Notes: generated by a model not told the origin, from the sequence alone. Shown: positions 5,961-35,433, counted from the first letter of the stretch. The stretch: 64,000 nucleotides of DNA from a virus (IMGVR_UViG_3300028832_000114:40465-104464); one strand, 5' to 3'. Made by a program: numbers and translations.

Positions 5961-8900
5961 ATGAGTAATAGATTTGAAGTTCATAGTCATACAATGTATA
6001 GTAATTTAAGACTTTTAGATAGTATTAACCGTCCGAAAGATTTAATTAATAAAGCAATTGAATTAGGATTAGCTGGTATAGCAATCACAGATCATGAGTG
6101 TATAAGTTCTCATCCTGAAATAAATTTTTATCAAACAGAAGTTCAAAAAGAACATCCTGATTTTAAAATAGCATTAGGAAATGAAATATATTTAACTGAC
6201 ACAAGAGATAGTGGTCAAAGATATTATCACTTTATTTTAATAGCAAAAAATAAAATAGGTCATCGCGCATTAAGAGAATTATCTTCAAGAGCGTGGATGA
6301 ATAGTTATTGGAATCGAGGTCTTGAACGTGTTCCAACATTAAAAGATGATTTAGAAGAAATATTAAAAAAGTATCCGAATAGTTTAATTGGAACAACAGC
6401 ATGTTTAGGTGGGGAATTAAGTATTAATACATTAGAATTAATAAAATGTGAAAAAACTAATGATAAAGATGGTGCGGCAGTTGCACATAATAATATAGTA
6501 AAATTTTTGTTATGGTGCAAAAATGTATTTGGAGATAATAATTTTTATATTGAATGTGCTCCTGGTACAAGTCGTGAACAAATCTTAGTTAATAAAAGAT
6601 TTCCCGCAATTGCAAAAGCATTTGGATTAAAAATGGTTATTGGAACAGATGCACATTATCTTAAAAAAGAAGATAGATATGTTCATAAAGCATATCTTAA
6701 TAGTAAGTTTGGAGAGCGTGAAGTAGATGAGTTCTATGAATTTGCATATCTTCAAAATAACGAAGAAATAATAGAACATTTAAAAGCATCTGATTTTAGT
6801 AATGAATTTATAGATGAAATGTTTCAAAATAGTTATGAAATATATGCAAAGATAGAAAATTATAATTTAGCTCATGCGCAAACAATCCCTCATGTTGAAG
6901 TAGAAGATTATCCTATTATAGAGATTGAATCAGAAGAATTTTTAGATAAGTATCCAGTTTTATCTGATATGTTTCAATCAAATGATCAAATAGAAAGATA
7001 TTGGGTAAACAAATGTTCAAATAAATTAAGAAAATTGGGTTTAAGAAATGAAACTTATCTAAGTAGATTAGAAGAAGAGGCGGATATTAAAAGAACAATT
7101 AGTGAAAAATTAGGAACTAATATGTTTGCATATCCAGTTACACTTCAACATTATGTAGATTTATTTTGGAATTGTGGAAGTATAGTAGGAGCTGGTCGTG
7201 GTTCAAGTTGTTCAGGTTTAAATCATTATTTATTAGGTATAACTCAACTTGATCCGATACAATGGAATCTTCCATTCTGGAGATATTTAAATAAAGAGCG
7301 TGTTGAGTTAGGTGATATAGATTTAGATTTATGTCCAAGTAAGCGTCCTAAGATTTTAAATGAAATTAAAAAAGAAAGAGGACAAAATTTTAAGGCGGAA
7401 ATAGATGATTTAAGTAGAAAGAATCTTGGTTGTACATTAATAGCAACATTTGGTACAGAGGGTACAAGATCAACAATATTAACTGCATGTCGTGGTTATA
7501 GGAATGAAGAGTATCCAGATGGTATAGATGTTGATACAGCACAATATTTATCATCATTAATCCCAAGTGAACGTGGGTTCTTATGGCCGCTTAATGATGT
7601 TATTAATGGTGATGAAGAAAAAGGTAGAAAGCCAATTAAAACATTTATAAATGAAGTAAATATGTTTCCTGGATTATTAGATATAATGTCTGGTATTGAA
7701 GGTTTAGTAAATAAAAGAAGTAGTCATGCTTCAGGAGTTATCTTATTTGATGAAGATCCATATGAGTTTGGTGCATTTATGAGAACTCCAAAAGGAGAAA
7801 TTATCACAGCGTATGATTTGCATATGTGTGAAGCATGTGGTATGACGAAATATGACTTCTTAGTAACAGAAGTTCAAGATAAATTAACAGAAGCAATTAA
7901 AATGTTGCAAGATTATGGAGAAATTGAAAGTGATTTAACATTAAGAGAAGTATATGATAAATATTTTCACCCAAATGTTCTTCCTATTGAAGATAATAAA
8001 TATTGGAAAGTATTGCAAGATAATAGTGTTTTAAATATCTTTCAGTTTGATAGTGATGTTGGAGGTCAAGCCGCAAAAAAGATTAAGCCAACAAATATAA
8101 TGGAAATGGCGGATGCAAATGGTTTGATGAGATTAATGACTGCGGAAAAAGGTCAAGAAACTCCAATGGAAAAATATATAAGATTTAAGAATAATATAAA
8201 TTTATGGTATAGAGAAATGGACTCATATGGTCTAACAAAAGAAGAACAAAAAGTATTAGAGCCATATTTTAAGAGTTCACATGGTGTTCCTCCAAGCCAA
8301 GAGCAGTTAATGAGAATGTTAATGGATGAAAAGATTTGTAACTTTACTCTTGCGGAAGCGAATGCCGCACGTAAGATAGTTGGTAAGAAACAAATGAATA
8401 AGATCCCCGCATTAAGACAACAGGTATTAGATCAAGCGTCAAGTCCATGTATGGGTAATTATATATGGAAGTGTGGTGTTGGTCCGCAGATGGGATATTC
8501 ATTTAGTATCATTCACGCGTTAGCATATAGTTTCATTGGTTTTCAAACAATGTATATAGCGACAAGATGGAATCCGATATATTGGAACACAGCGTGTTTA
8601 ATAGTTAATAGCGGAAGTCTTGAAGAAGATAGTGATTTTGAAGAAGACGAGGATGGATATATAGTTGAGAAAAAAGAAAAATCAACAGATTATAGTAAAA
8701 TAGCAAAAGCGTTAGGAGATATAATTAATAAAGGAATTAAAGTTAGTTTAGTTGATATAAATAGGTCAGATTATAGTTTTCAACCAGATGTAGATAATAA
8801 TGAAATATTATTTGGTATGAAAGCATTAAATAATGTTGGCGGTCCGATTATTGAACAAATAAAAGCAAGTCGTCCTTATGCGGGAATCGCAGATTTTATG

Positions 8901-10350: not shown

Positions 10351-12606
10351 ATGAAAGTCATTAAACGTGATGGTCGCTTGGTTGTTTTTGACCCAGCGAA
10401 AATCGAGAGAGCTATTCTCGCAGCATTCGAGGATGTAGATGGTGAAATATCTGACTACGCTAAAGATAAAGCTGAAAATATAGCAAGTTATATTGAAGGA
10501 TATTATTTAGATGTTGATGAAACACCTAATATTGAAGATATCCAAGACCTAGTAGAAAAAGGTCTAATGGCAACAAAAAGAAAAGATGTTGCAAAAGCCT
10601 ATATTTTATATAGGGAAGAAAGAAATAAAATTAGAAATTCCAATAGCCAATTAATGAAGGCTATTAAGGAAAAGATTGAAGCATCAGATGTTCAAAATCA
10701 AAATGCTAATATTGATGAATATTCTTTCGGCGGCCGTATGGGTGAAGCCCGCAGTGAGTTAATGAAAGATTATGCATTAAATTATTTAGTATCTGATATG
10801 GCAAGAGAAAATCATTTAAATAATGAAATTTATATTCATGATTTAGATGCTTATGCTGTTGGTATGCATAACTGTTTAACCATTCCTTTTGATAAACTAT
10901 TAGCAGAAGGATTTAACACAAGACAAACAGATGTTAGACCAGCTCGTTCAATTAACACAGCATTTCAATTAGTTGCAGTTTTATTTCAATTACAATCACT
11001 TCAACAATTTGGAGGAGTTAGCGCAAGTCATTTAGATTGAACTATGGTTCCATATGTTCGTATGTCATTTAGAAAACATTGGATTAATGGTGTAAAATAT
11101 ATTGAAGATAAAGTTAATGAAATTCCTGTTCAATATTTACCAGAAGAAACATCTATTGAAGATGAAGATTATCAAATGTTTCCAAGAGCATATCAATATG
11201 CAATGGATATGACAACAAAAGAACTTATGCAAGCTGTTCAAGGTATGTATCATAATCTAAATACACTACAATCTAGAAGTGGAAATCAATTACCTTTTAC
11301 TTCTATTAACTATGGTACTTGTACTTTACCTGAAGGTAGAATGGTTACAAAAGCATTATTAGAAGGCTCTATTGAAGGTGTAGGAAAAGTTAGAAAAACT
11401 CCTATATTCCCATGCGGTATATTCCAATGTATGAAAGGTGTTAATCGTAAACCTGGAGACCCTAACTATGATTTATTTAAGTTAGCATTAAAATCAACAG
11501 CTCAAAGATTATATCCTAATTATGTTAATATAGATTGGTCTACTAACGCGGGATATGATATTAACGATCCTAAAACATATGTTTCAACTATGGGTTGTAG
11601 AACTTATAATGGTGCGGATATTAATGCTGAACCTGGCACAAATCCTCAAACTAAGGACGGCCGCGGCAATATATGTCCAGTTACTATTGTAATGCCAACA
11701 TTAGCTATGGAAGCTAAAGAAGAAGCTGAAAGATTTAGAGAGGGAGCAGATGTATATTTTGATAAAATTGAATTATTTATGACGCTATTAGATAAAAAAA
11801 TCCATGAAGCTAGAGATATGTTAGTTGAAAGATATAAATGGATTATTAGTCAAAATCCTGAATCTGCAAAATTTATGTATGAAAATGGATTAATGCTTGG
11901 CTATGATGGTAAGACAGTTGAAAGTGCTATGAAACATGGAACTCTTGTAATAGGTCAAATTGGTATGGCTGAAACATTACAAATTTTAATTGGTTGCGAC
12001 CATACAGAACCTAGAGGAATGGAATTAGCAAAAAGAATTGAACAATTATTTAAAGATAGATGTGCTGAATTTAAAAAAGAATTACACTTAAATATTGGTG
12101 TTTATTATACACCTGCTGAAAATATGTGTTATACATCTATGAAAAAATTTAGAAAAAAATATGGAATTATTCCTAATGTAAGTGATAGAGATTATTTCAC
12201 AAATAGTATTCATGTTCCTGTATGGAAAGAAATGAGTCCATTTGAAAAAATTGATATTGAAAGTCAATTAACTGGATATAGTAATGCAGGATGTATTACT
12301 TATGTAGAATTAGAGGGCGGAGTTAAAAATAATTTAGACGCTCTTGAAACTATTGTTAACTATGCTATGGATAAAGATATTCCATATTTCGCAATAAATG
12401 TTCCAAATGATATATGTTTAGATTGTGGCTATACTGATGAATTCAATGATAAATGTCCAATGTGCGGAAGCACGCATATTCAACAACTTAGACGTGTTAC
12501 TGGATATTTAACAGGAGATTATAAAACAGCATTTAATAAAGGTAAACAACAAGAAACTGAACAAAGATATAAACATAGTAAAAAATTGGAGAACTGGCAT
12601 GATTAG
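10351..12606 (+). CDS. nrdD: Anaerobic (class III) ribonucleotide reductase with ATP cone
   Basis: VIKRDG ATP cone, IYIHDLD, MGCR, TPAE, CxxC...CPMC and RRVTGYL glycyl-radical motif; a single TGA at 11038 gives SHLD-W-TMVPY. Confidence 0.95.
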
Positions 12607-14678: not shown

Positions 14679-14960
14679 ATGACAATAGAAGAAAAAATAC
14701 AAAAACATCAAGAATTATTGAATATCCTACATGAAGTTTATATTGCAAAAAATCATGATTATGGGGATAGTGTTCATGATACTTATAATAAATATGGAAT
14801 AGTTTCTTTTTTGGTAAGACTTGAAGATAAATTAAATAGAGCTAGAACAATTAGTTCTAAATCTCAAATGGTAGAAGATGAAAAATTGAAAGACACTTTA
14901 TTAGATATGGCAAACTATGCTATTTTAGCAATTTTAGAGTTGGAGGATAATAATGGATAA
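14679..14960 (+). CDS. DUF1599 / nucleotide-modification-associated domain 1 protein
   Basis: KNHDYGDS...VRLEDKLNR...[12 protein letters not shown] signature. Confidence 0.8.
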
Positions 14961-16182
14961 AAAAATAAAAGAAGCATTAGAAAAAGAAATTATAAGACAA
15001 CAACAAAATATTGAATTAATTGCGAGTGAAAATTATGTATCTAATGATATATTAAAATTACAAGGAAGTATATTTACAAATAAATATGCAGAAGGATATC
15101 CCTCTAAAAGATATTATGGGGGATGTGAAAATGTTGATACTGTTGAACAATTAGCTATTGATTATGTATGTAAATTATTTAATGTAAAATATGCAAATGT
15201 TCAACCTCATAGTGGTAGCAGTGCTAATATGGCGGTATATAGAGCATTATTACAACCTGGTGATACTGTATTAGGCATGAATTTAAGTTCCGGTGGACAT
15301 TTAACACACGGATATAAATTAAATTTTAGTGGAAAAGATTATAATATTATTAGTTATGATGTTGATTATAATGGATATATTAATTATGATAATATTGAAG
15401 AATTAGCACTACAATATAAACCTAAAATGATTATAGCAGGCGCTTCCGCATATCCAAGAAAAATAGATTTTGCAAGATTTAAAGATATTGCAGATAAATG
15501 TGGTGCATATTTAATGGTTGATATGGCACACATAGCTGGATTAGTTGCGGCAGGTTTTCATCAAAATCCTTGTGATTATGCAGATGTAGTAACTTCCACT
15601 ACACATAAAACACTACGTGGACCTCGTGGAGGAATTATATTAACAAATAATAGTGAAATTAGTAAAATAATTAATAAAACAATATTCCCAGGTATTCAAG
15701 GTGGACCTTTAGAGCATGTAATCGCCGCAAAAGCTCAGTGTTTTTATGAGGCACTACAATCCGATTTTAAAGAATATCAAAAACAAGTATTAAAAAATAT
15801 TACAGCAATGGCTGAAGAGTTTCGTTCACTTGGGGTTTCTTTAGTAAGTGATGGCACTGATAATCATTTAATTTTAGTTGATGTATTTCACTCTTTTGGT
15901 TTAACAGGGGCGGAAGCAGAAATAATTTTAGATAAAATTCATATTACAGTTAATAAAAACACTATTCCAGGAGAAACATTAAAAGCAACTGAGGCAAGTG
16001 GTATTAGAATTGGTAGTCCTGCTATGACAACTAAAGGACTTAAAGAAGAAGATTTTAAAACAATAGCAGATATTATTTATATGGCTTTATCTTTAAGAAC
16101 TGATAAAAATGCATTAGAAAGACAAAAAGAAAGGGTATTAGAAATTACAAATAAAATTTATTATGAGCAAACTAATTTTTAG
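14953..16182 (+). CDS. glyA: Serine hydroxymethyltransferase
   Basis: [34 protein letters not shown] and FPGIQGGP motifs. Confidence 0.97.
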
Positions 16183-16738
16183 ATATAGTGCTATGAATAG
16201 TGGCAAAACAACCAATTTGTTACAAGTAGCACATAATTATGAAGAACGCGGGTTTATGGTTAAAATAGCTAAACCTGAAATAGATACAAAGGCGGATGAC
16301 CGTGTTTCTAGCCGCATTGGACTAGAACGAAAGGTAGACTACCTAATACCGCCGCAAGGAGAAATATCAATAGATCTAAGAACTAATGTGCTATTGATTG
16401 ACGAAGCACAATTTCTAAATAAAGAACAAATAGATCAATTATATGAAATATCAAAATTATATAATATTTTAATTATTTGCTATGGTTTAAGAACGGATTT
16501 CCGCATGCAAGGATTTCCTGGGGCTACTCGTCTACTAGAAATAGCTGATGAAATTGAAGAATTAAAAACTATTTGCTCTTGTGGCAAAAAGGCTACATTT
16601 AATCTTCGTCTAATTAATGGTTTTCCAACATTTGAAGGAGACCAAGTGTCTATTGATAATCAAGAAGAAATAAAATATGATAGTATATGCGGGGATTGTT
16701 ATTTAAAATTAAAACAAGGAGCTAAAAATGGATTATAA
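16163..16738 (+). CDS. tdk: Thymidine kinase
   Basis: [22 protein letters not shown] and CxC...C Zn sites. Confidence 0.95.
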
Positions 16739-17351
16739 AATTGAAACTAAAATTACTGATTTTGATATTAATTGAAAAAAAATAAAATCAGCATGTATGA
16801 CTACTATATCAAAAGAAGCTGGAGATAAAGAACCATCAAGTGAATGAAAAAGAAAATTATTATTATGTGAGCATAGTCCTATTCGTCGCGGTACTGTAAG
16901 TTGGAAGTGAGATGCTATTCCCTATGCAATTTCAACTCATTTTGTAAGACATCATGAAGGTGTAGAAAAATGGGTAGGCACTCAAAGAGCTGATAGAACA
17001 GAAGTAAAAGATAGAAGTGAAAGAAGCCAAATGAATCCAGTCCCTATGGAGATGGAAGCTAATATTCAAGCATTAATTAATATATCATATAAAAGACTTT
17101 GTACTTGTGCAGATCCACTTACTAGAAAATATTGGGAAAATACTTTATTAGCAATTAAGGAATATGATGAAGATATATTCTGGGCTTGTGTTCCTCAATG
17201 TATTAGATGTGGAGGATGCCCTGAATATAAAACTTGTGGATATTATGAACAATTTGCAAAAAATCTAACAATGGAAGAACAAATAGATATTCATAAAAGA
17301 TATGATAAATATAATGAAGAAAGAGCTAAAAGACTAACTTTGAAAAAATAA
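16728..17351 (+). CDS. thyX: Flavin-dependent thymidylate synthase (ThyX-like; 3 TGA)
   Basis: With TGA=W gives EHSPIR, STHFVRH..TQRADR, RLCTCA and VPQCIRCGGCPE; extends ORF 17031-17351 by 101 aa. Confidence 0.8.
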
Positions 17352-19255: not shown

Positions 19256-19284
19256 TTGAAAAAAATAAAAAAATAGAGTATAAT
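19256..19284 (+). promoter_or_regulatory. SigA-type promoter
   Basis: TTGAAA-N17-TATAAT. Confidence 0.75.
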
Positions 19285-19316: not shown

Positions 19317-19568
19317 ATGAAATATTTATTAGAAACAACTGAATCTTATAGAGTTAGTACTGAAGAAGAAGTAACTCAATTAATAGAAAATGCAAAAAAA
19401 GATAATCATTATATATTAAAAAAACACACTTCACAAATTAAAGAGCGTAAACAAAAAGGTGAGGTTGTTGATATGTGGTATAAAGTAACCTTAACAAAAT
19501 ATTTTACAAGTGAAAAAGAACCTGAAGGAACAACAGAAATTGTTTATAATGAGGGGAGCGCATTTTAA
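19317..19568 (+). CDS. Hypothetical protein
   Basis: AGGAG RBS, 83 aa. Confidence 0.7.
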   Translation: MKYLLETTESYRVSTEEEVTQLIENAKKDNHYILKKHTSQIKERKQKGEVVDMWYKVTLTKYFTSEKEPEGTTEIVYNEGSAF

Positions 19569-19570
19569 TT

Positions 19571-20005
19571 ATGGAAATAAAATATAAAAAATTAGATTCA
19601 AATGCAAAAGAACCAACTCAAGGGAGTCCATATGCAGCAGGATATGATTTATATGCAGCAACAGATAAAGCAACAGGAATTAGACCGCATACAACAGTAA
19701 AGATTGGAACTGGTATTGCTATTGAGTTACCTGAAAATACCTTTGGTGCTATTTTTGCTAGAAGCGGACTTGCTACAAAACAAGGATTGCGTCCTGCAAA
19801 TTGTGTAGGAGTAGTTGATTCGGATTATAGAGGAGAAGTTATTGTAGCATTACACAATGATACAGATAATATACAAGTTATTTCATCTGGTGATCGTATA
19901 GCTCAATTGGTAGTTATGCCTTATATACCTGTTAGATTTATTGAAACAGAAGAATTAACAGATACTGTCCGTGGTGATGGTGGATTTGGTTCTACAGGAG
20001 TTTAA
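19571..20005 (+). CDS. dut: Trimeric dUTPase
   Basis: AAGYDL, ARSGLA, GVVDSDYRGE, RIAQL and RGDGGFGSTG motifs. Confidence 0.97.
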   Translation: MEIKYKKLDSNAKEPTQGSPYAAGYDLYAATDKATGIRPHTTVKIGTGIAIELPENTFGAIFARSGLATKQGLRPANCVGVVDSDYRGEVIVALHNDTDNIQVISSGDRIAQLVVMPYIPVRFIETEELTDTVRGDGGFGSTGV

Positions 20006-20006
20006 T

Positions 20007-20210
20007 ATGTTTGCAGCTCTAATGGGATTGCTTACAGCCCAAAACAATCTTAGAATGACTCAAGCAAGATTAATAACTCATCATATACCAATTAATAATA
20101 ATGATATTGAAAAAGAACAAAAAGAAAAAGAAGAATATAAACCAAAGCATGAAGAAGAATTTTATAGACCTAAACATGCTAGTGAAATAGATATGTCAAT
20201 ATCAATTTAG
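20007..20210 (+). CDS. Hypothetical 67-aa protein
   Basis: GGAG RBS then ATG at 20007; short YKPKH/YRPKH repeat. Confidence 0.5.
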   Translation: MFAALMGLLTAQNNLRMTQARLITHHIPINNNDIEKEQKEKEEYKPKHEEEFYRPKHASEIDMSISI

Positions 20211-20218
20211 GAGGAAAA

Positions 20219-21145
20219 ATGAAATATTTAATTACAGGTAGCGGTTATTTGGCTAAAAATTTAATAGCTAGATTGTTAAACCACCCAGACACTGAAAAAA
20301 TTAAAATCTTTTCAAGAGCAGAAAAAGAACAATGAGAAACAAAAACTCTTTTTAATAATGATTCTAGATTAGAATTTATTATTGGAGATGTTAGAGATTA
20401 TCAAGCAATTTGTACTGCTTTTGTTGACGTAGATCGTTGTATTCATACTGGCGCAATTAAAAGAATTGAAGTTGCAGAAAAACAACCAATGGAAGCAATT
20501 AAAACTAATGTAATTGGTAGTATGAATGTTATAAATGCGGCAATCGCTAATAAAGTTAAAAAACTTATACTTATCTCAACTGACAAAGCGACTTCCGCAA
20601 CCACTTGCTATGGCAGTACTAAATTCTTAATGGAATGTATGGCATATGCAAACGAAAGTGATACAGATATTATTTGCACTCGTTATGGAAATGTATTTGG
20701 TTCAACCGGCAGTGTTGTTCCAATATTTGATGAATTAAGCAAACAAGGTAAACCATTAACTATTAGAAATGGAGAAATGACTCGTTTCTTTATGGAAGTA
20801 AGTAAATGTGTTGATATTATTATAACTGCATTAGATTGTGGGAAAAATGGAGAATTATGGATATATGCTAGTAAAGCCTGTACAATTAAAGATCTAGCCG
20901 ATGCTTTTGGCGGAGAACAAATTATTACTGGTGTAGAAAACATTGAAAAAAATGATGAAGCCCTTATTACTATTAATGAATTAAATCACAGTATAAAAGC
21001 TGATGAATATTATATTATTCGTAAAGATTATAAAAGTGACATTGAATATACAGAGCCGTTAACAAGTTATACAGCAGAAAGATTAACACAAGATGAAATT
21101 AAACAAATGATTAAGAATTGGAGGATGGCAAATGATAAAAGTTAG
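20219..21145 (+). CDS. UDP-GlcNAc 4,6-dehydratase/epimerase (PseB/CapD/FnlA-like SDR; 1 TGA)
   Basis: YLITGSGYL Rossmann start, FSRAEKEQW, IGDVRD, ISTDKA, YGSTK, RYGNVFGSTGSV and MTRF motifs. Confidence 0.85.
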
Positions 21146-21716
21146 TATCTTAATGCCAGCCTTCAATGCTGAACGTTTTATTCGAAATGCTTTAGCAAGC
21201 ATTCCAAAAACTGACGAGATAGAAATTATAGTTGTTAATGATGGCTCTACAGATAAAACTGCGGCAATAGCTAAAGAATTTGATGTAAAATTAATTGACC
21301 GTAAGAAAAATATGGGCGTTGGTTATTCGCGCAAAGAGGCGCTTGCCGCCGCACAAGGTGAATACATAATGTTCTTTGATAGTGATGATACTATTAATAC
21401 TGAAAATTTTAAAAAAGTAGTAGAAATGTTAGATGGAACTGATATAGTTTATTACGATATGATAAATAATAATGGAGAAATATATCATTTAAATGATTAT
21501 TATAAAACAAAAGTTGTAGGAATGGTTAAATTTATTAGAAGAGAATATGCAAATAAATTTGATTATCCAGCACTACCAAGATACGAAGACGTAACTTTTA
21601 ATGAAATGTTACAAAGTCTTCCACATACAGAAAAATTTTCTAATTTAATTGTAGTAAACTATAATAACCCTAGATATGATAGCACTAGCGCAAAATGGCT
21701 TAGAGGTGAATTATAA
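21132..21716 (+). CDS. GT2 family glycosyltransferase
   Basis: VSILMPAFN, VNDGSTD, FFDSDD and YEDV motifs. Confidence 0.9.
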   Translation: MIKVSILMPAFNAERFIRNALASIPKTDEIEIIVVNDGSTDKTAAIAKEFDVKLIDRKKNMGVGYSRKEALAAAQGEYIMFFDSDDTINTENFKKVVEMLDGTDIVYYDMINNNGEIYHLNDYYKTKVVGMVKFIRREYANKFDYPALPRYEDVTFNEMLQSLPHTEKFSNLIVVNYNNPRYDSTSAKWLRGEL

Positions 21717-21717
21717 A

Positions 21718-22530
21718 ATGAAAATCAAATTATATTCACAATATCGTAGGTTTAATGATTTTCAAGAGCCAAAATATATTCAATGAGATCCAGACGGACA
21801 AATAGAAGCATATCATGATGTTTTTATCTCGGCGGCAATTCATAATAAAAATAACGGAAAAAAGAAAATTGCAATTATAACAGAACCAAGATGTGTTTGG
21901 CAACATGTTTTTGGAAACTTTGATATAGAACTATTTTTAAAAAGACAATATAATCTTTTTCAATATATATTTACATTTGATAATGAAATATTAAAATTGC
22001 CTAATGCTAAACCAATAGGTTTTCCTGGAATATGATATTCAGGAGACGAAGAAAAAACAAAAAATATCTCTATGTGTTGTTCTAATAAATCTATGTGTCC
22101 ATCACATCTTAAAAGAAAAAAAGTTGCAGATAAATTAAAAAATAAAGTTGATATATTAGGAGATTATTTAGGAGAAGCAAGAGCTTCAACAAAAGACATA
22201 TATAGTCAATATAAATACAGTGTTGTGTTAGAAAATGATTGCTCTTATTGATATTATACAGAAAAAGTTATTAATGCTTTTGCTAATAAATGTATTCCAA
22301 TTTATTATGGTACGCCTAGAATATTAGAACTATTTAATCCAAAAGGAATAATTTTTGTTGAAAATTTAGATAAAATAGAAGAAATTATTGATAATCTAAA
22401 CCCTCACTATTATGAAGAAAATATAGACGCAGTAAATGAAAATTTTGAACTAGCAAAAAAATATAGTTGTTATGAAGATTGCCTATATTTAGATTATCAA
22501 AAAGAATTGGAGGACTTATGAAAATATTAG
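21718..22530 (+). CDS. GT10-like (alpha-1,3-fucosyltransferase-type) glycosyltransferase; invisible in code 11
   Basis: With TGA=W gives YKYSVVLEND..WYYTEKVINAF..CIPIYYG, matching the GT10 motif. Confidence 0.75.
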
Positions 22531-24857
22531 TTTTAAGTTGTGATAAGTATTCATATTTATGACCAACTTTTTTTACATTGCTAGATAAGTATTATCCAAA
22601 TCATCCAGAGGTATATCTTTCAACAGAACAAAAAAATTGTAAATATTGTAAAACAATCAATACTAAATCTGAAATATGAACAGATAGATATCAAAATGCG
22701 TTAAGACAAATTCCTGATGATTATGTTTTAGTTTTGTTAGAAGATTTTTTTATTCGTGGACCTGTTGATGAAGAGCGTATTAATCAATCATTAGAACTAA
22801 TGAAAAACAATAAAAAAATTGCAGTATGTAATTTTGAATTACAATATAGAAAAGGAATTGAAAATGCATATCCTGGATATGATATTCAAAAAAATAATCA
22901 AATATATTTAAACTCTTGTCAACCTAGTTTGTGAAATAGAGAAATATTAATTAATAGATTACAAACACCTCAAGATGCATGAGCATGAGAGACAACTCTT
23001 ATTAATAGTCCATATCTTCATTTAATTAATAATACAAATAAATATATTATTGATATTGGATATAGACACCAAGCCATAACTGGAGATGGTTGAGGAGTAA
23101 CAAGAGGCAGATTGTCTCAAGAGTGTCAAGACTTCTTAAAAACAGAAGGTTTAGAAATTAAAAAACATAAATTAAGTATTATTACACCCTATTACAATGT
23201 CTTAAACTATACCAAAGAGTTGGCGGCAGCACTTGAACCGCAATTAACAGATGCAGTGGAATGAATTATTGTAGATGATGGTTGTAATGAGACCGAATTA
23301 GATAAATTAAATGCTCAAGTTATTCATTTAAAAGAGAATAGCGGCGGCGCTAGTGTTCCACGAAATGAAGGAATGAAAATTGCAGATGGCGATTATACAG
23401 TATTTATAGATGCTGATGATTTAGTTCAACCATATTATATAAAAACAATTTTAAATAAAATTGAAAATAGTACATTTGATTATTGCTATTTTGGCTGAAA
23501 GGGTATTGGAGCATTACCTGTAAACATAATGATTACTGATCAACCGCCAGAATGGAACACATCAATATGAAATTGTATTTATAAAACAGAAAATATAAAA
23601 AATATTCAATTTGATCCTGCGCTATGTATGGCTGAGGATTATGAATTTAATAAGCTAGCCCGCATAGGAAAATGTGAACACATAAATAAAATAATTTATA
23701 TTTATAGGGCTGGTGTTGAAAATGGATTAACAAAACGTGGAACTAAATATAACCCAAAATATAATAAACAATATGATTATAGTAATGTATTTTATTTTTA
23801 TAAATTATCTGAAATTGGTGGTGTTGAAACATTTATATATCAACTTGCAAAAAAATACCAAAATTTAGATATAACAGTATTTTATAAAGAAGCTGATTCT
23901 CAACAATTAGCACGATTAAGCAGATATGTTAGTGTTAAACAATATACAGGACAAAAAATTACTTGTAAAAAAGCATTCTTTCACTATGATAGAAGTGCTA
24001 TTGATACAATACAAGCTGATGAATATTATGGTATGATACATGCAGATTATCTTAATTTTAGAGCTGCTCCTCCACCAACACATCCTAAAATTAAAACATA
24101 TATTGGAGTAACTCAAGCTGTTTGTGATGCATTTAAAAAACGCACTGGTAAACCTTGTGTTTGCTGTTACAATCCTTTAGTAATAGGAAATCCACCTAAG
24201 GTATTAAGATTACTTTCCGCAACCAGATTTACATATGAAAAGGGTGCTCAAAGAATAGAACAACTTGCAACAGCTTTAGAACAAGCTGGTATCCCATATG
24301 AGTGAACTATTTTTTCAGATACGGTATTTCCTGCAAAAAAACATAATATTATATTTAGAAAACCTCGTATGGAAATTTATGATGATCTAAGAAGAGCAGA
24401 TTATGTAGTTCAATTAAGCGATACAGAATCGTTTTGCTACACAATGGTTGAAGCACTATCTGTTGGAACTCCAGTTATTGTATGCCCATGACCATGTTTA
24501 AAAGAACTTGGAGTTAACGAAACAAATTCATTTATTTTACCATTTAATATGAAAAACATTCCCGCAAAAGAAATTTATGAGAAAAAATTTAATTTTAAAT
24601 ATACTGTTCCAAAAGATATGTGAAACACATTCTTAACTCAAGATGAATCAACCTATGCCCAAGAGCGTAGTAGATTATATTTAGTAGAGGCTCTTGATAC
24701 TTATGAAGAAATGAAGTTAAAAGACGGTGTTTTGGGATATCTACCTAAACGCGGAACAAGATGAACAGTAAATAAAGATAGATTAGATTATTTATTAGGT
24801 CAAAATCCTAGACATGTAGCATTTGTTAGAATTATTCCAGATGATGAATCAAAGTAG
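22518..24857 (+). CDS. 779-aa fusion: GT-A-like domain + GT2 + GT4-like domain + C-terminal small domain (13 TGA)
   Basis: LVLSCDKY..W/LLEDFF; LSIITPYYN/VDDG/IDADD; IGGVETF/SATR/SDTESFCYTMVEAL; one continuous frame to TAG at 24857. Confidence 0.85.
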
Positions 24858-24865
24858 GAGGAATT

Positions 24866-25435
24866 ATGAAACTTAGTATAATTACTCCTTACTTTGACGC
24901 TTTGGATTATACAACAGAATTGGCAAACAAACTTATTCCTCAATTAAATAAAGATGTTGAATGAATTATAATTGATGATGGATGTCATGAAAAAGAACTT
25001 AATAAATTTTCTAAAAAAGTATTACACTTAGCTCAAAATCGCGGCTGCGCGGGATTACCGCGTAATATAGGTTTAGATGCCGCCCAGGGCGAATATATTA
25101 CATTTGTTGATGCTGATGATTTAGTGGCGGACAATTTTGTTGAAGCAATTCTTAATAAAATAAATACCTCAACATTTGACTATTGTTATATGAATTGAGA
25201 AAGATTAGATAAATTATTTCACACAAATGTAAAAAAGGGTCGTCCTGAATGAAATTGTAGTGTATGAGGAATTGTATATAAAAAAACACTGATAAACTCT
25301 CATCGTTTTAATGATAAAAAAATTGCAGAAGATTATGATTTTAATAAAGAAGTATTAAATGGAACGCAAGAAATTATTACTGATTTTCTATACTTTTATA
25401 GATTAAATAAAAAAGGAATTAGTCGTAACTATTAA
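24866..25435 (+). CDS. GT2 family glycosyltransferase (4 TGA)
   Basis: LSIITPY, IDDG, RNIGL, VDADD and AEDYDFN; paralog of the middle domain of the fusion protein. Confidence 0.85.
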
Positions 25436-25447
25436 TAAGGAGGTATT

Positions 25448-26548
25448 ATGACTACAACGTATTCAAATATATATTATTTTAACAATATTTGTGCAATAGG
25501 AGGAACAGAAACCTTCTTATATCAATTAGCAAAAAAATATAAAGATTTAGATTTAACGATTGTTTATCGTGATGCTGATATTACACAATTAAATAGATTA
25601 AAACAATACGTAAGATGTATAAAATTTACAGGACAAAAATTAAAATGTAAAAAAATATTTTTTAATTATCATTTTGATATTATTGATAATGTTGATGCGG
25701 AAGAATACATTTTAGTTGTTCATGCAGATTATGCCGCATTAAAGAAAACAATGCCTAATTTAAAACCACCAATACACAACAAAATTACAAAATATATCGG
25801 AGTAAGTAAAAATGCTTGTAAAATGTTTACTCAATTTACTGGTAAACCATGTGAATTATGTTATAACCCATTTACCTATGAAAAACCTAAAAAACAATTA
25901 AAATTAGTAAGTGCAACTAGATTATCAAGAGAAAAAGGTAAAAATAGAATTATTGCATTAGCAAATTTATTAGATAAAGCAAAAATAGATTATGTATGAA
26001 CAATTTATACCACAGATAAGAAAGCAATAGAAAACCCGCACATCATTTATAAAGATCCAGTATTAGATATAGAAAAATACATTGCGGATGCTGATTATCT
26101 AGTTCAATTAAGTGATAATGAAGGTTTTTGTTATTCTGTAGTTGAAGCATTATGTTCAGGAGTTCCTGTTATAGTAACACCATGTCCAGTATTTGAAGAA
26201 TTTGGATTAAAAGATGGTATTAATTCATATATAGTGCCTTTTGATATGAAAAATATTGATGTAAAAAAATTCTTAAAAGTACCAAAAAACTTTACTTTCA
26301 CGCCACCTAAAGATAGTTGGAAAACATTTTTAGATAATACTCCAAGTACATATGAAAAAGAAAAAAAAGCTATCTATTTAGTTGAGGCATTACCTATTTA
26401 TCATGAAGGAAAACCAATCACTGATAGTCAATTAGGTAGAGTACCTGAAGTTGGAGAACGTTGGGAAGTAAATAAAGAAAGATTAGATATATTGCTTGGT
26501 AATAATCCAAGACATCAAGTTTTTGTTAAAGTAATAAATATGAAGTAG
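25448..26548 (+). CDS. GT4-like glycosyltransferase with C-terminal small domain (1 TGA)
   Basis: IGGTETF, SATRLSREKG and SDNEGFCYSVVEAL; joins ORFs 25448-25999 and 26234-26548. Confidence 0.85.
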
Positions 26549-26572
26549 TTAATTAAATTAACTACTTTTTTT
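26543..26572 (+). terminator. Rho-independent terminator
   Basis: AAGTAGTTAA / TTAACTACTT stem plus T-run. Confidence 0.7.
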
Positions 26573-26586
26573 ATTTTACAAAAATA

Positions 26587-26615
26587 TTGCGTTCTAAAAA
26601 ATTTTTGTGTATAAT
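26587..26615 (+). promoter_or_regulatory. SigA-type promoter with extended -10
   Basis: TTGCGT-N17-TATAAT with TG upstream of the -10 box. Confidence 0.7.
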
Positions 26616-26642
26616 GAAAGTAGAGAAAAGTAGGTGTTGATT

Positions 26643-27152
26643 ATGAAAATACTTAGTTTAGATTTGTCTACTAAAAGTTCAGGATGAGCAATATTTGAAA
26701 ATGGTATGTTAATGAAATCTGGATGTATTACATCTTCATCTTTAGATTTAATTAAAAGAATTAAGATAATGACTGCAGGAATCCACGATCTTATAAATGA
26801 AAATGGCCCAATTGATAAAATCATTGCTGAAGAAGTTAGACCAGAAGGGACTGGATATGGTGTTGGAAATCAAAAGACACACAAAGCATTAATGTATCTT
26901 CAGGCGGCAATTAATTTTATGTTATATGATGATTTCGATAAAAAAGAAATGGAACTTATATATCCTAGCTCTTGAAGGGCGGCTATAGGAATTCACACTG
27001 GCCGCGGTATTAAAAGAGCTAGTTTAAAAGAAAAAGATATTCAATTTGTAAAAGAAAATTATAATCTTGATGTTAATGATGATGAAGCGGATGCTATCTG
27101 TATTGGATACTCTTGCTCTCACGATGAAGAAACCGATATAAATTGGGAATAA
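26643..27152 (+). CDS. RuvC-like Holliday junction resolvase (2 TGA)
   Basis: ILSLDLSTKSSGW, IIAEE, PSSWR and DDEADAICIG catalytic motifs. Confidence 0.85.
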
Positions 27153-27225
27153 AAATTTTATTCCTTTACGATACTTTTTATCATAAAAGTATTTTTTTTA
27201 CTCTACAAGTCAAATTTTAAGCACA

Positions 27226-27262
27226 AAAAAATAGCACAGGTATAAAAACCTGTGCTTTTTAT
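27226..27262. terminator. Bidirectional terminator at the convergence of the two transcription arms
   Basis: A-run, AGCACAGGT-loop-ACCTGTGCT, T-run. Confidence 0.8.
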
Positions 27263-27264
27263 TT

Positions 27265-30123
27265 TTATAATTTTGTTTGAACTTGAGTTGCTGATATACT
27301 CATTGTTCCATTTATATCTAAAGGTATAGATAATGAATTCATCATAAAATCTCCATGAATATCAGCTTCATTAGATTGTATCGTAACTCTTGTATTGGGT
27401 TCAAGATGATAAATAGGCATTAATGAAATATTAACATTTGAATTATATTTTGTATATTCTCATAATAAATTTTTAATTTCATTAAAACAACTATTGTGTA
27501 ATCCACCGACACTTATACCAGAATAAATATTAGAACTTACTTGGCAATAATCTTGATTTCTTCTTTCGCATTCTTCTCTTTTTGCCTCTGCAGAATCTCC
27601 GGTTTCAATAATAACAATATCTGGAATTTCAGATTCAAACACACAGTTTAAATCATTACTACTTTTAGCAAGACTTCTACGACCAATATTATTTACATTT
27701 AATTCACTAATTTCTGCGTCACTATCTATAAAATCTAACCAATAATCGACATTTCAAGGATTAGTTAAAACATCTTCATAAAATGCTCCTGTATAAATAA
27801 TTTTACCATTACTGTCTGTATAATAATCTGCTTGTAAATTATATAATTTAGGTCATTCAGCTTCTAATTCAGCATAATAATAATTTGTTTCCAATCCTAA
27901 TGGGGCAGCAGTAGCTCCTGATAAGTATAATTCAGAACGTCAATCTGTAGCTTGAACATTAACCATAGGATGTTCTTTATATCTAACATATTCATTTTGA
28001 GAAAATAATAAACTGCTTTTTGTTGTTTCATATGCTTGCTTAATTGTTTCAATATCATTTTCATATTGCGTAATATGATGATTTTCTATAAGAATATGTT
28101 GTTCAATTTCTGCTACTTCCATTTCATAATCTTGTAAATATTGCTGTCTAATTAATGCTTGTTGTTCTTCATAAGTTTGAATTTGAGTTGCTAATTGTAA
28201 ATTTGCTAATTCAGTTTCTTGTTCACTAATTTCAGTAGAAATTTCTTGTACCGTCGCTTGAGCGGTTTCTAAAGCATTAGTATATGCAAGAATTTGAACA
28301 TTAAGTTCTGCTAATTTTGTTGTATCTGTTTCATTGTTTATTTGTCCAGATACAACAGTTATATCTTGTGCTTTTTTCATTGCCGCATCTTGTTCTTTTG
28401 CAGCTTGTATTCTCAATTCGTTAATCTCATCATCATATTTTTTTTGAGTATCTTTACAAGATTGAATTTTTGTACTAAGACTTTTTACTTGGGTTAAATA
28501 TTTATTAAATTGTTTATCTAAATCTTCTATTTGTTTTTTATAATTTGAAATATTTTTATTACATTGATTAATTAAATTTTGTTTAGTTTTTATATCTGTA
28601 TTATAATTAATTTCCATAATTTTTAATTGATTAGCCACTGCTTTATAATGAGTACTACCTGGATTTAATGTTCAAATATATTTTTTAGTAGTAGATAAAT
28701 CTACATATATCTTGTTAAATTCTCCTAAATTTGGAAAATTATTTATAGTAGAATATTCTTCATATGTATAACCGTCAATAGAAACATACCTTTGATTTGT
28801 TCCATCTCATCTATAAATTGCATTTGTACTAGTGTCTAAATAAAATGTTTCTTCAGCTCCAATTTCTGGAAATAAAGCTTTTGTTTGATATTTCAATGGA
28901 CATTTAGCTTTTCTTAATCCATCATTTGGATCGTCATAAAAGAAAACCTCATATATTTTACCTATTTCAGGTTTTGTATCAATAGCCAAATGATAACGAA
29001 TAGGTAATTTTAATCCTGTTGTAGTTTCTCTAATTCCCCATACTACAAAATCATTTTTAATTTTAGTATATTGTGGACTGTTAGAAAAATTTATAACTAA
29101 TTTATTATCGCTAAAATCATAAACAGATTTGCCATCTGTAATATTAATTACATAATCATCATTGTTCATATTGGCCAAATCAACAGTTGCTTGTGTAGTA
29201 TTTAAATAATTTTTAATTTCTTGAAATACAAAATTTCCATCGACATCATAAAAATATTCAAAATTACCTAATAAATTTTTAATTTTATCTAAAATAGTGC
29301 ATACATTATCTCCTGCATTAGCAGTTAAATCTTTATTACTTCAAACAAAATCAGTATAAATAAAACCAACATCTTCTCCATAATTAAATTGTTGAATAAC
29401 CCCACCGGTTTGTTTTGCATTAGCAAAAGATGTTGTAAGCGTATGAGACTCTCCTTTGCTTGTTAAATAAATTGGATTATCTCCTAATCAACGCATAACC
29501 ATTTTAATTCTTTCTTCAATATCGTTTATTACAATTTTTGTTAAATCTTCTTTTCCAAAATGATTAACCAATTCTTTAATAATTGTTGTTAAAGTTGGTT
29601 GAATTGTAATCATCTCTCCTGTTAAAGTATCAATTGTATCATATTTATCAAAAACAACAGATGATGTAATTACTCCTCCACACTCTCCATTTAATAAGCA
29701 CATTTTATCTTTTAATTGGGCGGAAAGATTAGTTCCAGAACCAAGATCTGTGTTTACACTACATTGAGTAAAAACAAAAGTTCCTTGTGGATATCATAAA
29801 ATATCATAATTTGTATATTTATTCGTTCTATTAACAATACCAATTTCTACATATACTTTTTTATTAATAGAAATTAAATTTTTTACATCGGTAATTTTAC
29901 CTGTTGAAACATCTTTAACTGTCATAGATAAACTACAGGTTCTACGAATGGCAGAACTACCATTAATTGAAATAGTTCCGCCAGTTGCAATACCTTGAAT
30001 TTCCTGTAAAGGATTTTCATCTCAATCTAATAATGTCAATTTAATAAATTGAGTTTGTAATCTTTGTGTGTCTGCCAGATATAAAAAACTAGTATCTTTT
30101 AAATAAGGATAATCTCTTTTCAT
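27265..30123 (-). CDS. Minor tail/baseplate-type protein (DUF5048-like), 952 aa, with internal coiled coil
   Basis: ORF fragments at 27460, 27940, 28807 and 29488 share one frame; N-terminus LLDWDENPLQEIQG..GSSAIRRTC, YFYDVDG, C-terminal PIYHLEPNTR. Confidence 0.7.
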
Positions 30124-34850: not shown

Positions 34851-35075
34851 CTATCTTTTATTACCATTAATTAAATTAATCATTTGCATAAATTGTTCTT
34901 TTGTAATCCCTTTTTCATTACACATTTTTGCAATACTTTCCGCCTGTTTTTCAGTGGGTTGACTACTTAGCGTATTAAAAAGTTGTAACTGTTGTGGATT
35001 TAGTAGACTTGTTAGGGCTTGTTGTGGTTGACTTGACATCAACATTTGTGACAACAGGTTCTGTATGTTTATCAT
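34851..35075 (-). CDS. Small Gln/Met-rich hypothetical protein
   Basis: GGAGGAG RBS; AKMCNEKGIT motif. Confidence 0.7.
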   Translation of the reverse strand: MINIQNLLSQMLMSSQPQQALTSLLNPQQLQLFNTLSSQPTEKQAESIAKMCNEKGITKEQFMQMINLINGNKR

Positions 35076-35433
35076 TCAATCTCTCCTCCAATTCTTTTAA
35101 TTTATTTTCTAATTCATCAATTTTTATATCTTTTGCATCTTTAGGAATTATAATTTCATAATTCTTAGAAATTGTTCCATCTAATTCTTTAACACATATT
35201 CTATGATTTGTTTCGTCGATAAATAATGTTTTTTTAGTTATAATAACATTCTTTATATCCTCTTCTGGTTTTAAATATCTTACTTCAGTATCAGAGGAAT
35301 TAGATGTATTAATAATATTTTGAATTGGAGTGGTTTGATTAGCCATACCTTGATATTGATTTATCATATTTTCAATATTTTCTTTTTGTCTATAAAGTTG
35401 TGTCATCATACCACCATAATTATTATAAGGCAT
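34975..35433 (-). CDS. Hypothetical protein, first gene of the six-gene module
   Basis: GGAAGGGA RBS, 152 aa. Confidence 0.7.
   Translation of the reverse strand: MPYNNYGGMMTQLYRQKENIENMINQYQGMANQTTPIQNIINTSNSSDTEVRYLKPEEDIKNVIITKKTLFIDETNHRICVKELDGTISKNYEIIIPKDAKDIKIDELENKLKELEERLNDKHTEPVVTNVDVKSTTTSPNKSTKSTTVTTF

Follow-up and report, generated by a model that had tools for sequence, protein, structure and literature searches.

The stretch of DNA analysed here (64,000 nucleotides, IMGVR_UViG_3300028832_000114:40465-104464, hereafter the window) was taken from a linear IMG/VR virus record of 104,464 bp, whose completeness is about 70%. It comes from a cattle-gut phage of about 29% GC in which UGA is decoded as tryptophan. 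We are concerned with a putative glycan-building cassette of six genes, g1 to g6, at positions 20219-26548 of the window (Table 1). Gene calling under translation table 11 breaks this region into fragments, whereas reading TGA as tryptophan gives six contiguous open reading frames (ORFs) on the + strand, with likely true starts at the first positions listed for each gene in Table 1, intergenic gaps of -14 to +12 nt, and a GGAGG-type Shine-Dalgarno site at every start; a 79-aa ORF and a dUTPase gene lie upstream. The original prediction, made from the sequence of the window, counted seven glycosyltransferase (GT) domains and one donor-modifying enzyme among these six genes, a count borne out by the recoded ORFs, by Pfam and structure matches, and by a fold model of a homologue. 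The cassette has no blastn match among 50,697 phage records.

Table 1. The cassette g1-g6, its component domains and its borders, in window coordinates
Feature	Position	Strand	Basis and remarks
Promoter-like site	19256-19284	+	11/12 consensus matches; possible start of transcription unit 19317-27152; consensus match only
dUTPase	19571-20005	+	Pfam dUTPase 5.9e-30; left border of variable island; left flank conserved in relatives
g1, FnlA/CapE/PseB-type UDP-GlcNAc 4,6-dehydratase, 308 aa, 1 TGA	20219-21145	+	Polysacc_synt_2 7.6e-64
g2, short soluble GT2, 194 aa, 0 TGA	21132-21716	+	PF00535 4.9e-30; no transmembrane-like segment
g3, GT10-like (fucosyltransferase-like) GT-B enzyme, 270 aa, 4 TGA	21718-22530	+	PF00852 1.5e-9
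g4, 779-aa fusion: GT-A domain, GT2, GT4, C-domain	22518-24857	+	
g4 N-domain, GT-A-fold transferase, 6 TGA, 0 TGG	22518-23165	+	Fold from homologue model; family without Pfam model
g4 middle domain, GT2	23166-23780	+	PF00535 1.2e-17; FIDADD motif
g4 GT4 domain (retaining GT-B)	23781-24632	+	PF00534 5.9e-8; 49% identity to g6
g4 C-domain, about 57-70 aa, appended	24633-24854	+	Alignment and profile hits
g5, GT2, paralogue of g4 middle domain, 4 TGA, 0 TGG	24866-25435	+	PF00535 1.1e-16; 47% identity to g4 residues 218-412
g6 GT4 catalytic part	25448-26320	+	PF00534 5.8e-12; whole g6 is 25448-26548
g6 C-domain	26321-26545	+	Alignment and profile hits; hhalign to Streptococcus suis phage head-module proteins
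RuvC-like resolvase	26634-27152	+	phrog_827 1.5e-18; right border of island; right flank conserved
Bidirectional terminator-like hairpin	27233-27256		Between converging + strand unit and - strand virion operon

The product of g1 scores 216 bits against the Pfam model PF02719 (gathering cut-off 20.2), and its nearest solved structures are the FnlA-type 4j2o (1.8e-53, residues 4-278), CapE and FlaA1/PseB, which are inverting UDP-N-acetylglucosamine (UDP-GlcNAc) 4,6-dehydratases. Aligned with 4j2o it keeps the STDKA and YGSTK (YxxxK) motifs, but it is shorter than these enzymes at both ends and falls below the NCBIfam equivalog cut-offs for PseB (TIGR03589, 222 against 408 bits) and FnlA (TIGR04130, 204 against 730 bits); by these scores g1 is a relative of PseB and FnlA and an equivalog of neither. 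For pseudaminic acid (Pse) or N-acetyl-L-fucosamine (L-FucNAc), neither g2-g6 nor the genes on either side include a later pathway enzyme (aminotransferase, acetyltransferase, synthase, reductase or epimerase), and the partners PseC/H/G/I, FnlB/C and CapF/G are absent from the phage.

All three GT2 domains exceed the PF00535 cut-off of 23.3 bits (105 bits for g2, 65 for the middle domain of g4, 62 for g5), with DxD motifs reading DSDD, DADD and DADD, respectively. The GT10 C-terminal domain of g3 scores 38.2 bits (PF00852, cut-off 23.9) and matches the Helicobacter pylori fucosyltransferase FucT (2nzw, 2.7e-12) over residues 157-233, with no family match for the N-terminal half of the protein. 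Both GT4 domains pass the PF00534 cut-off of 26.4 bits (45.9 for g6, 32.9 for g4) and carry the E-x7-E motif, in which E225 and E233 are invariant; the predicted model of g6, with a predicted local distance difference test (pLDDT) value of 87.7, has HepE, BshA, GtfA, TarM and SdgB as structural matches. The first 215 residues of g4, which we call the N-domain, matched nothing in Pfam, PHROG or, by sequence, the PDB, and an N-domain profile found nothing usable in the PDB. A stand-alone homologue that is 54% identical to the g4 N-domain, encoded by an unrelated standard-code phage of 44.7 kb (L005; L and G numbers are our handles for compared loci and records), was modelled as a GT-A fold at pLDDT 90.9, with Foldseek matches to B4GALNT1, BoGT6a, LgtC and TarP at 1e-6 to 1e-4. 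Residue D76 of a DD/ED-x-F-I-R motif is invariant in this family, and no CAZy or Pfam family can be assigned to the domain.

Residues 218-773 of g4 have a paralogue that is divided between two genes, g5 and g6, at 47-49% identity. A recent tandem duplication in place was considered as their origin and rejected, as g6 is closer to its homologues in L012 (58%) and P0008 (81%) than to g4 (49%). Because g6 is nearer to genes of other phages than to g4, the second core set was probably acquired by recombination. The cassette genes are intact, with TGA read as tryptophan, because TGA codons fall on family-invariant tryptophan columns (W184 of g6 and residue 54 of g4).

None of the g1-g6 products has a transmembrane (TM)-like segment, and nowhere in the 104-kb record did an ORF show three or more of them; the approximately 70% of the genome that is present therefore encodes no flippase, polymerase or GtrA/GtrC-type protein. 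The TM-segment scan of cassette and record thus agrees with the original prediction, which had remarked on the absence of flippase, polymerase and GtrA/B-type membrane parts. A Gtr-type serotype-conversion system is not what we see, as g2 covers the catalytic part of phrog_841 only (positions 3-126 of 309) and is without a TM-like segment. Nor is a Wzx/Wzy or ABC-type capsule or exopolysaccharide (EPS) locus, as neither the cassette nor the record was found to contain a phosphoglycosyl transferase for initiation, a polymerase, or a flippase or transporter.

In relatives of this phage a conserved core, consisting of the GT-A N-domain, a GT2 and a GT4 with its C-domain, often preceded by the dehydratase, occupies the same position between dUTPase and RuvC, and the content of the island is swapped from one relative to the next. 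L006 and L007, whose RuvC is 92% identical to that of the window phage, each carry a single core set in which the GT4 is only 33% identical. The dehydratase is missing from the islands of L010, L012 and L014, and g2 and g3 were found only in the window phage among the loci compared. Other islands contain additional genes: a Stealth CR2/CR4 hexose-1-phosphotransferase (L012:6633-7586), a MobA-like nucleotidyltransferase (L009:8015-8800) together with a GT4, and a methyltransferase-GT2-GT8 fusion (L013:6901-8820), likewise with a GT4. Such genes suggest that sister phages use sugars carrying phosphate or methyl groups. In four further relatives (L015-L018) dUTPase adjoins RuvC with no cassette gene between them, on the opposite strand in L016. 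Turnover of this kind between close relatives is the pattern expected of an exposed glycan under selection. We also observed, directly before the GT genes of the same island, a TGA-free gene of about 480 aa with SPFH/Band-7 and flotillin matches (L010:6061-7524, L012:5063-6514 and L013:5412-6845).

The core is not limited to the UGA-recoded clade. It recurs in unrelated standard-code phages (L003, L004, L005, L023, L025-L027, L047, L048), and its parts are joined in many fusion states: N-domain with GT2 in L006 of the clade itself, GT2 with GT4 and C-domain in L025, L047 and L048, and GT2-GT2-GT4 with C-domain in L003. Because the core recurs as a unit in so many states of fusion, its parts probably act together in one pathway. 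The GT4 and C-domain family comprises 1846 protein clusters and the N-domain family at least 1094; across both, only two of the matches listed carry a name, generic in each case, and the N-domain family itself has none. A pattern scan for the N-domain in 185,579 species genomes gave six confirmed hits, all on short contigs of metagenome-assembled genomes (MAGs), and on two of the six (L030 and L031) terminase genes lie beside the cassette. To judge from these searches, the core is a widespread system that is almost confined to phage-like contigs. Closest homologues in host EPS or teichoic-acid loci with the cassette decaying, which the original prediction had named as contrary evidence, are not what was found: the scan of species genomes gave just the six hits on short MAG contigs, and the genes are intact. 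Two observations from single phages belong here as well. The GT2 gene at L005:10614-11214 matches in two adjacent frames (10614-10724 and 10726-11214), which suggests a frameshift or an assembly error. Butyrivibrio phage Arawn, a cultured rumen phage, carries a lone GT4 homologue (L028, record 25082-27506) that is 37% identical to g4 residues 431-705, with no C-domain match detectable in the tblastn alignment.

Gene order in four of these phages connects the cassette with the head and packaging module. L003, L030, L031 and L043 are standard-code small phages whose terminases belong to three different families, and in all four the genes for the terminase large subunit and the portal follow 0.1-2 kb downstream of the cassette, on its own strand. 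The C-domain leads to the same part of the phage genome. It has no Pfam or PHROG match, its profile found nothing usable in the PDB, and a suspected relation to YqbF-like proteins was not confirmed by Pfam. A profile built from the last 57-75 residues of GT4 proteins and searched against 1.84 billion representative proteins retrieved 291 proteins, which are GT4 C-termini, other GT fusions and many stand-alone proteins of 57-134 aa. One of the fusions, P0368 (726 aa), combines a GT resembling g3 (35% identity) and one resembling g2 (34%) with the C-domain. The stand-alone proteins begin with the C-domain and continue into acidic, Lys-rich, AT-hook-like or Rho_N/HeH tails. Proteins of 96 aa from Streptococcus suis prophages and phages are homologous to the C-domain (hhalign probability 96.9%, E 1.5e-10), Streptococcus phage Bonnie has a stand-alone gene of this type directly after its major head protein gene, and in phages of the L049 and L052 types about 2.2 kb separate the stand-alone gene from the capsid gene downstream of it. 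Examples from head modules are L049:7992-8225, L052:2519-2737 and L055-L072 (about 7932-8240), with tails that are AT-hook-like (KKRGRKKK) or of Rho_N/HeH type. In L043 a stand-alone C-domain gene heads a GT2-GT2-N-domain cassette; the complex predicted for its product and the capsid protein that this phage encodes (L074) scored 0.14 against a mark of 0.32, which speaks neither for nor against an interaction. Within the window clade the C-domain occurs solely on GT4 proteins, and it is absent from the relative that lacks the cassette.

Codon usage sets the transferases apart from the genes around them. TGA accounts for 21 of the 23 tryptophan codons in g3-g5 (91%), compared with 30 of 119 (25%) in the + strand genes of replication and nucleotide metabolism (Fisher p=2.6e-9) and 97 of 136 (71%) in the - strand virion genes, so that the late-like TGA density which the original prediction attributed to several cassette genes is real for g3-g5; g1, g2 and g6 pooled have 2 of 7. 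The nearest relative, L006, repeats the contrast, with 3/23 in early genes, 79/88 in late genes, 0/3 in the dehydratase and 17/19 in the GTs. Translation of genes that depend on the recoded codon is believed to occur only late, once the code has switched (PMC9523058, citing Borges 2022). TGA usage thus supports late translation of g3-g5, as far as timing can be read from codons: because their tryptophan is spelled almost solely TGA, these genes would be translatable only with an active UGA-reading tRNA, alongside the virion proteins. The dehydratase may have a different history. It is 79-80% identical among window 20219-21145, L006:6681-7601 and L005:9094-10026, with neighbouring GT genes at 33-56%, a contrast which suggests that the donor gene was recently exchanged between phages of different genetic codes. 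Because of this identity to the L005 gene, the low TGA content of g1 may reflect recent exchange and not early expression.

The reading that we favour, tentatively and at somewhat less than an even chance, is that the cassette is a soluble, cytoplasmic glycan-building system used late in infection on proteins of the phage's own particle, most likely those of the head. In this scheme g1 would convert host UDP-GlcNAc to a 4-keto-6-deoxy-N-acetylhexosamine nucleotide, the entry to L-FucNAc, N-acetylquinovosamine (QuiNAc) or Pse-type sugars, and host enzymes may complete the donor sugar. The GT domains would then transfer sugars singly and straight onto the acceptor without using a lipid carrier. 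The conserved core of new GT-A domain, GT2 and GT4 would be brought to the acceptor by the C-domain borne on the GT4, acting as a docking module. The window phage has two diverged core sets, one in the g4 fusion and one in g5 and g6, in addition to g2 and g3, and for this reason a longer or branched glycan, or two glycans, would be expected.

The original prediction also proposed a glycan on virion proteins and named Ser/Thr-rich fibres as candidate acceptors. The first part is indirectly strengthened by the near-restriction of the core to phage-like contigs, the kinship of the C-domain with head-module proteins, the adjacency to terminase and portal genes in four phages, and the failure to find a base-hydroxylating enzyme. 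The second is not, as nothing points specifically to Ser/Thr-rich fibres and the link is with the head or packaging module. Gene content, folds, paralogy, distribution, gene context and codon usage are what the analysis shows; from these we infer the donor sugar, the virion acceptor, docking by the C-domain and the timing. Separately, a 152-aa protein encoded in the tail-side module (window 34975-35433, - strand) ends in a Ser/Thr-rich C-terminal tail (KSTTTSPNKSTKSTTVTTF). Among the DNA of relatives examined it has homologues in L009, L012 and L013 only, in which the tail is conserved; the protein is a candidate glycan acceptor whose presence does not clearly track the cassette.

Virion glycosylation in mycobacteriophages (Che8, Corndog, Myrna) offers the closest functional parallel. 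There, too, phage-encoded soluble GTs come from operons placed at the margin of the structural operon or away from it, these operons vary between relatives, no lipid-carrier pathway is described, and virion proteins are the proposed acceptors (PMC12619734, PMC11256854), with glycans reported at the C-termini of capsid and tail-tube subunits (Freeman 2023, via PMC12619734). The putative window system comes from Firmicutes-type rumen and gut phages, so that the host phylum is another one, and it differs in its own GT-A family, a head-module-related C-domain carried on a GT, up to seven GT domains, an FnlA/PseB-type dehydratase, and translation tied to UGA recoding.

An analogy of architecture is provided by chlorovirus PBCV-1, in which virus-encoded cytoplasmic multi-domain GT fusions (A064R type) build the capsid glycan without host ER or lipid carrier. 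PBCV-1 is a eukaryotic virus and no sequence relation was found; the methyltransferase-GT-GT fusion of L013 follows a similar logic.

Several observations weigh against glycosylation of head proteins. The major capsid gene of the clade was not found with PF05065, and the cassette sits on the replication strand among genes of nucleotide metabolism and recombination. By itself g1 gives no finished donor sugar. The DNA-binding-type tails of stand-alone C-domain proteins fit a link to DNA as well as one to the capsid, and in Arawn the GT4 has an SSB gene on one side and one carrying the annotation 'CMP glycosidase' on the other. The argument from timing has few tryptophan codons to go on for g1, g2 and g6, finds little early-late contrast in TGA in more distant relatives (L013, L014), and is confounded by gene exchange with non-recoded phages. 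Moreover, DNA glycosyl transfer is likewise a late event (PMC13326640), so that late timing cannot separate a protein target from a DNA target.

Hypermodification of DNA is the alternative that survives best, although we regard it as improbable. On this reading the GTs would act on a modified base once phage DNA has been replicated, either ahead of packaging or in its course, as protection against host nucleases, and the C-domain would have DNA or the packaging apparatus as its binding partner. It is favoured by the position of the cassette, flanked by dUTPase and RuvC with SHMT, thymidine kinase and NrdD/G genes not far off, by the adjacency of homologous cassettes to a terminase gene in small phages, by the Rho_N/HeH or AT-hook-like tails found on stand-alone C-domain proteins, by the net charge of g6 (+11), and by the context of the Arawn homologue. 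Known systems of this kind (T4 alpha/beta-GT, MT/5mYOX- or ThyA-linked GT clusters) also resemble the cassette in having GT-A and GT-B enzymes structurally close to TarP and BshA/MshA, sugar-nucleotide tailoring, proximity to DNA metabolism or terminase genes, and late action, and phage enzymes related to TarP, BshA and MshA glycosylate 5-hydroxymethylcytosine (5hmC) from clusters next to terminase or structural genes (bioRxiv 10.1101/2023.12.21.572611). The arabinosyl-5hoC modification of RB69 and DLP3 (PMC13326640) was among the systems compared.

What argues against a DNA target is the lack of an enzyme to make the acceptor. All known routes need a ThyA-family or TET/JBP enzyme to provide the acceptor hydroxyl, and an enzyme making a hydroxylated or hydroxymethylated base is required in all known phage DNA glycosylation covered by our two sources (PMC13326640; bioRxiv 10.1101/2023.12.21.572611). 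Neither the ThyA family (PF00303) nor TET/JBP (PF12851) was found in six records, namely that of the window and five cassette-bearing records that are 91-100% complete (G003, G004, G007, G012, G014), the TET/JBP search being one in which control genomes, too, gave no match above the family cut-off and which is therefore not validated. PF00303 was also absent from six further records, including G001, G002, G011 and G013, which have a cassette homologue, and G005, which does not; ThyX (PF02511) has no match in the record of the window or in G001, G003 and G004. Described DNA glycans are only mono- to trisaccharides, and the cassette has seven GT domains, far more than the known clusters, with genes for sugar methyl- and phospho-transfer in its relatives. 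These features, together with strong allelic turnover, fit better with a protein-linked or polymer glycan than with base modification. About 65% of GT contigs are reported to lack a base-modification partner (bioRxiv 10.1101/2023.12.21.572611). We note in addition that SHMT and thymidine kinase (window 14953-16738) and dUTPase (19571-20005) are present with neither ThyA nor ThyX found in the record, G003 or G004, and that in the window phage and in L014 thymidine kinase is always followed by a Trp-rich protein of 207-223 aa (window 16728-17351, + strand; L014:6664-7335) for which Pfam, PHROG and a PDB sequence search gave nothing.

Remodelling of the host envelope is a quite unlikely alternative. 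Here the soluble GTs would decorate teichoic acid, capsule or S-layer glycan from the cytoplasmic side and so block superinfection or the sticking of progeny to debris; enzymes of the TarP, TarS and TarM types work without a dedicated flippase. The nearest characterised relatives of the transferases are TuaG, TarP, TarS, TarM, SdgB, GtfA and WaaG-type enzymes, g2 carries the PHROG label 'GtrB-like O-antigen conversion', and Stealth and SPFH/flotillin genes lie in the same island in relatives. TarP/TarS/TarM and GtfA/SdgB are moreover soluble GT2 or GT4 enzymes that act in the cytoplasm on polymer or protein and are among the best structural matches. However, the cassette proteins show no sequence-level membership in these groups, have the C-domain in place of a trimerisation or DUF1975 domain, and belong to core families that are practically absent from bacterial genomes and never occur in a wall-polymer locus. 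The hallmark C-domain belongs with phage head-module proteins, g2 is without the membrane part of GtrB, the annotated genes of the record give no lysogeny context, and the TGA-rich GT genes imply late translation, which would leave little time for surface remodelling. Similarly unlikely, finally, is some other acceptor, such as a non-virion phage or host protein, a small molecule or a peptide (for example a sublancin-type glycopeptide or a metabolite), or a drifting, exchangeable moron without a fixed role: the GT4 relatives do include the small-molecule enzymes BshA, MshA and SenB, g2 weakly matches SunS-type peptide S-glycosyltransferases, and the island is dispensable, being lacking in L015-L018, but catalytic motifs and invariant Trp positions are all kept, which argues against decay, no precursor peptide or export gene lies nearby, and the conserved position beside head and packaging genes in unrelated phages would be left unexplained. 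A small part of our confidence is assigned to none of these readings.

Returning to glycosylation of particle proteins, phage GT cassettes and virion glycosylation are already known in kind. New here are a phage-restricted core with its own GT-A family, a C-domain that forms a common module with head-module relatives, a hotspot in a UGA-recoded clade, and the pairing of a TGA-poor donor gene with TGA-rich transferases. A broader proposal, which we consider possible but doubtful, is that the C-domain is a capsid- or procapsid-docking module of a large undescribed toolkit of exchangeable GTs in phages whose gut and rumen hosts are of the Firmicutes type. Sets of these enzymes would be swapped at hotspots to give strain-variable head glycans, and in UGA-recoded lineages the code switch would time the system, with the dehydratase translatable early and the transferases only when the suppressor tRNA is active.

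Whatever the acceptor, both the N-domain family, with its more than 1000 protein clusters, and the C-domain are at present without a name in annotation, and the cassette is a clean natural case in which to ask whether stop-codon recoding times accessory enzymes. For the question of DNA versus protein as the target, Arawn is a tractable system; were the target DNA, the cassette would represent a glycosylation route without a known base-hydroxylating partner, which would be equally new. To our knowledge, actinobacteriophages and some giant viruses are the only viruses in which glycosylation of virions has been demonstrated. If our reading is true, it would extend to major groups of phages in animal microbiomes, especially with a GT-A family of their own and a head-module-related docking domain, and would bear on the recognition of phages by immune systems, mucus and host defences, and on the design of phage therapy.

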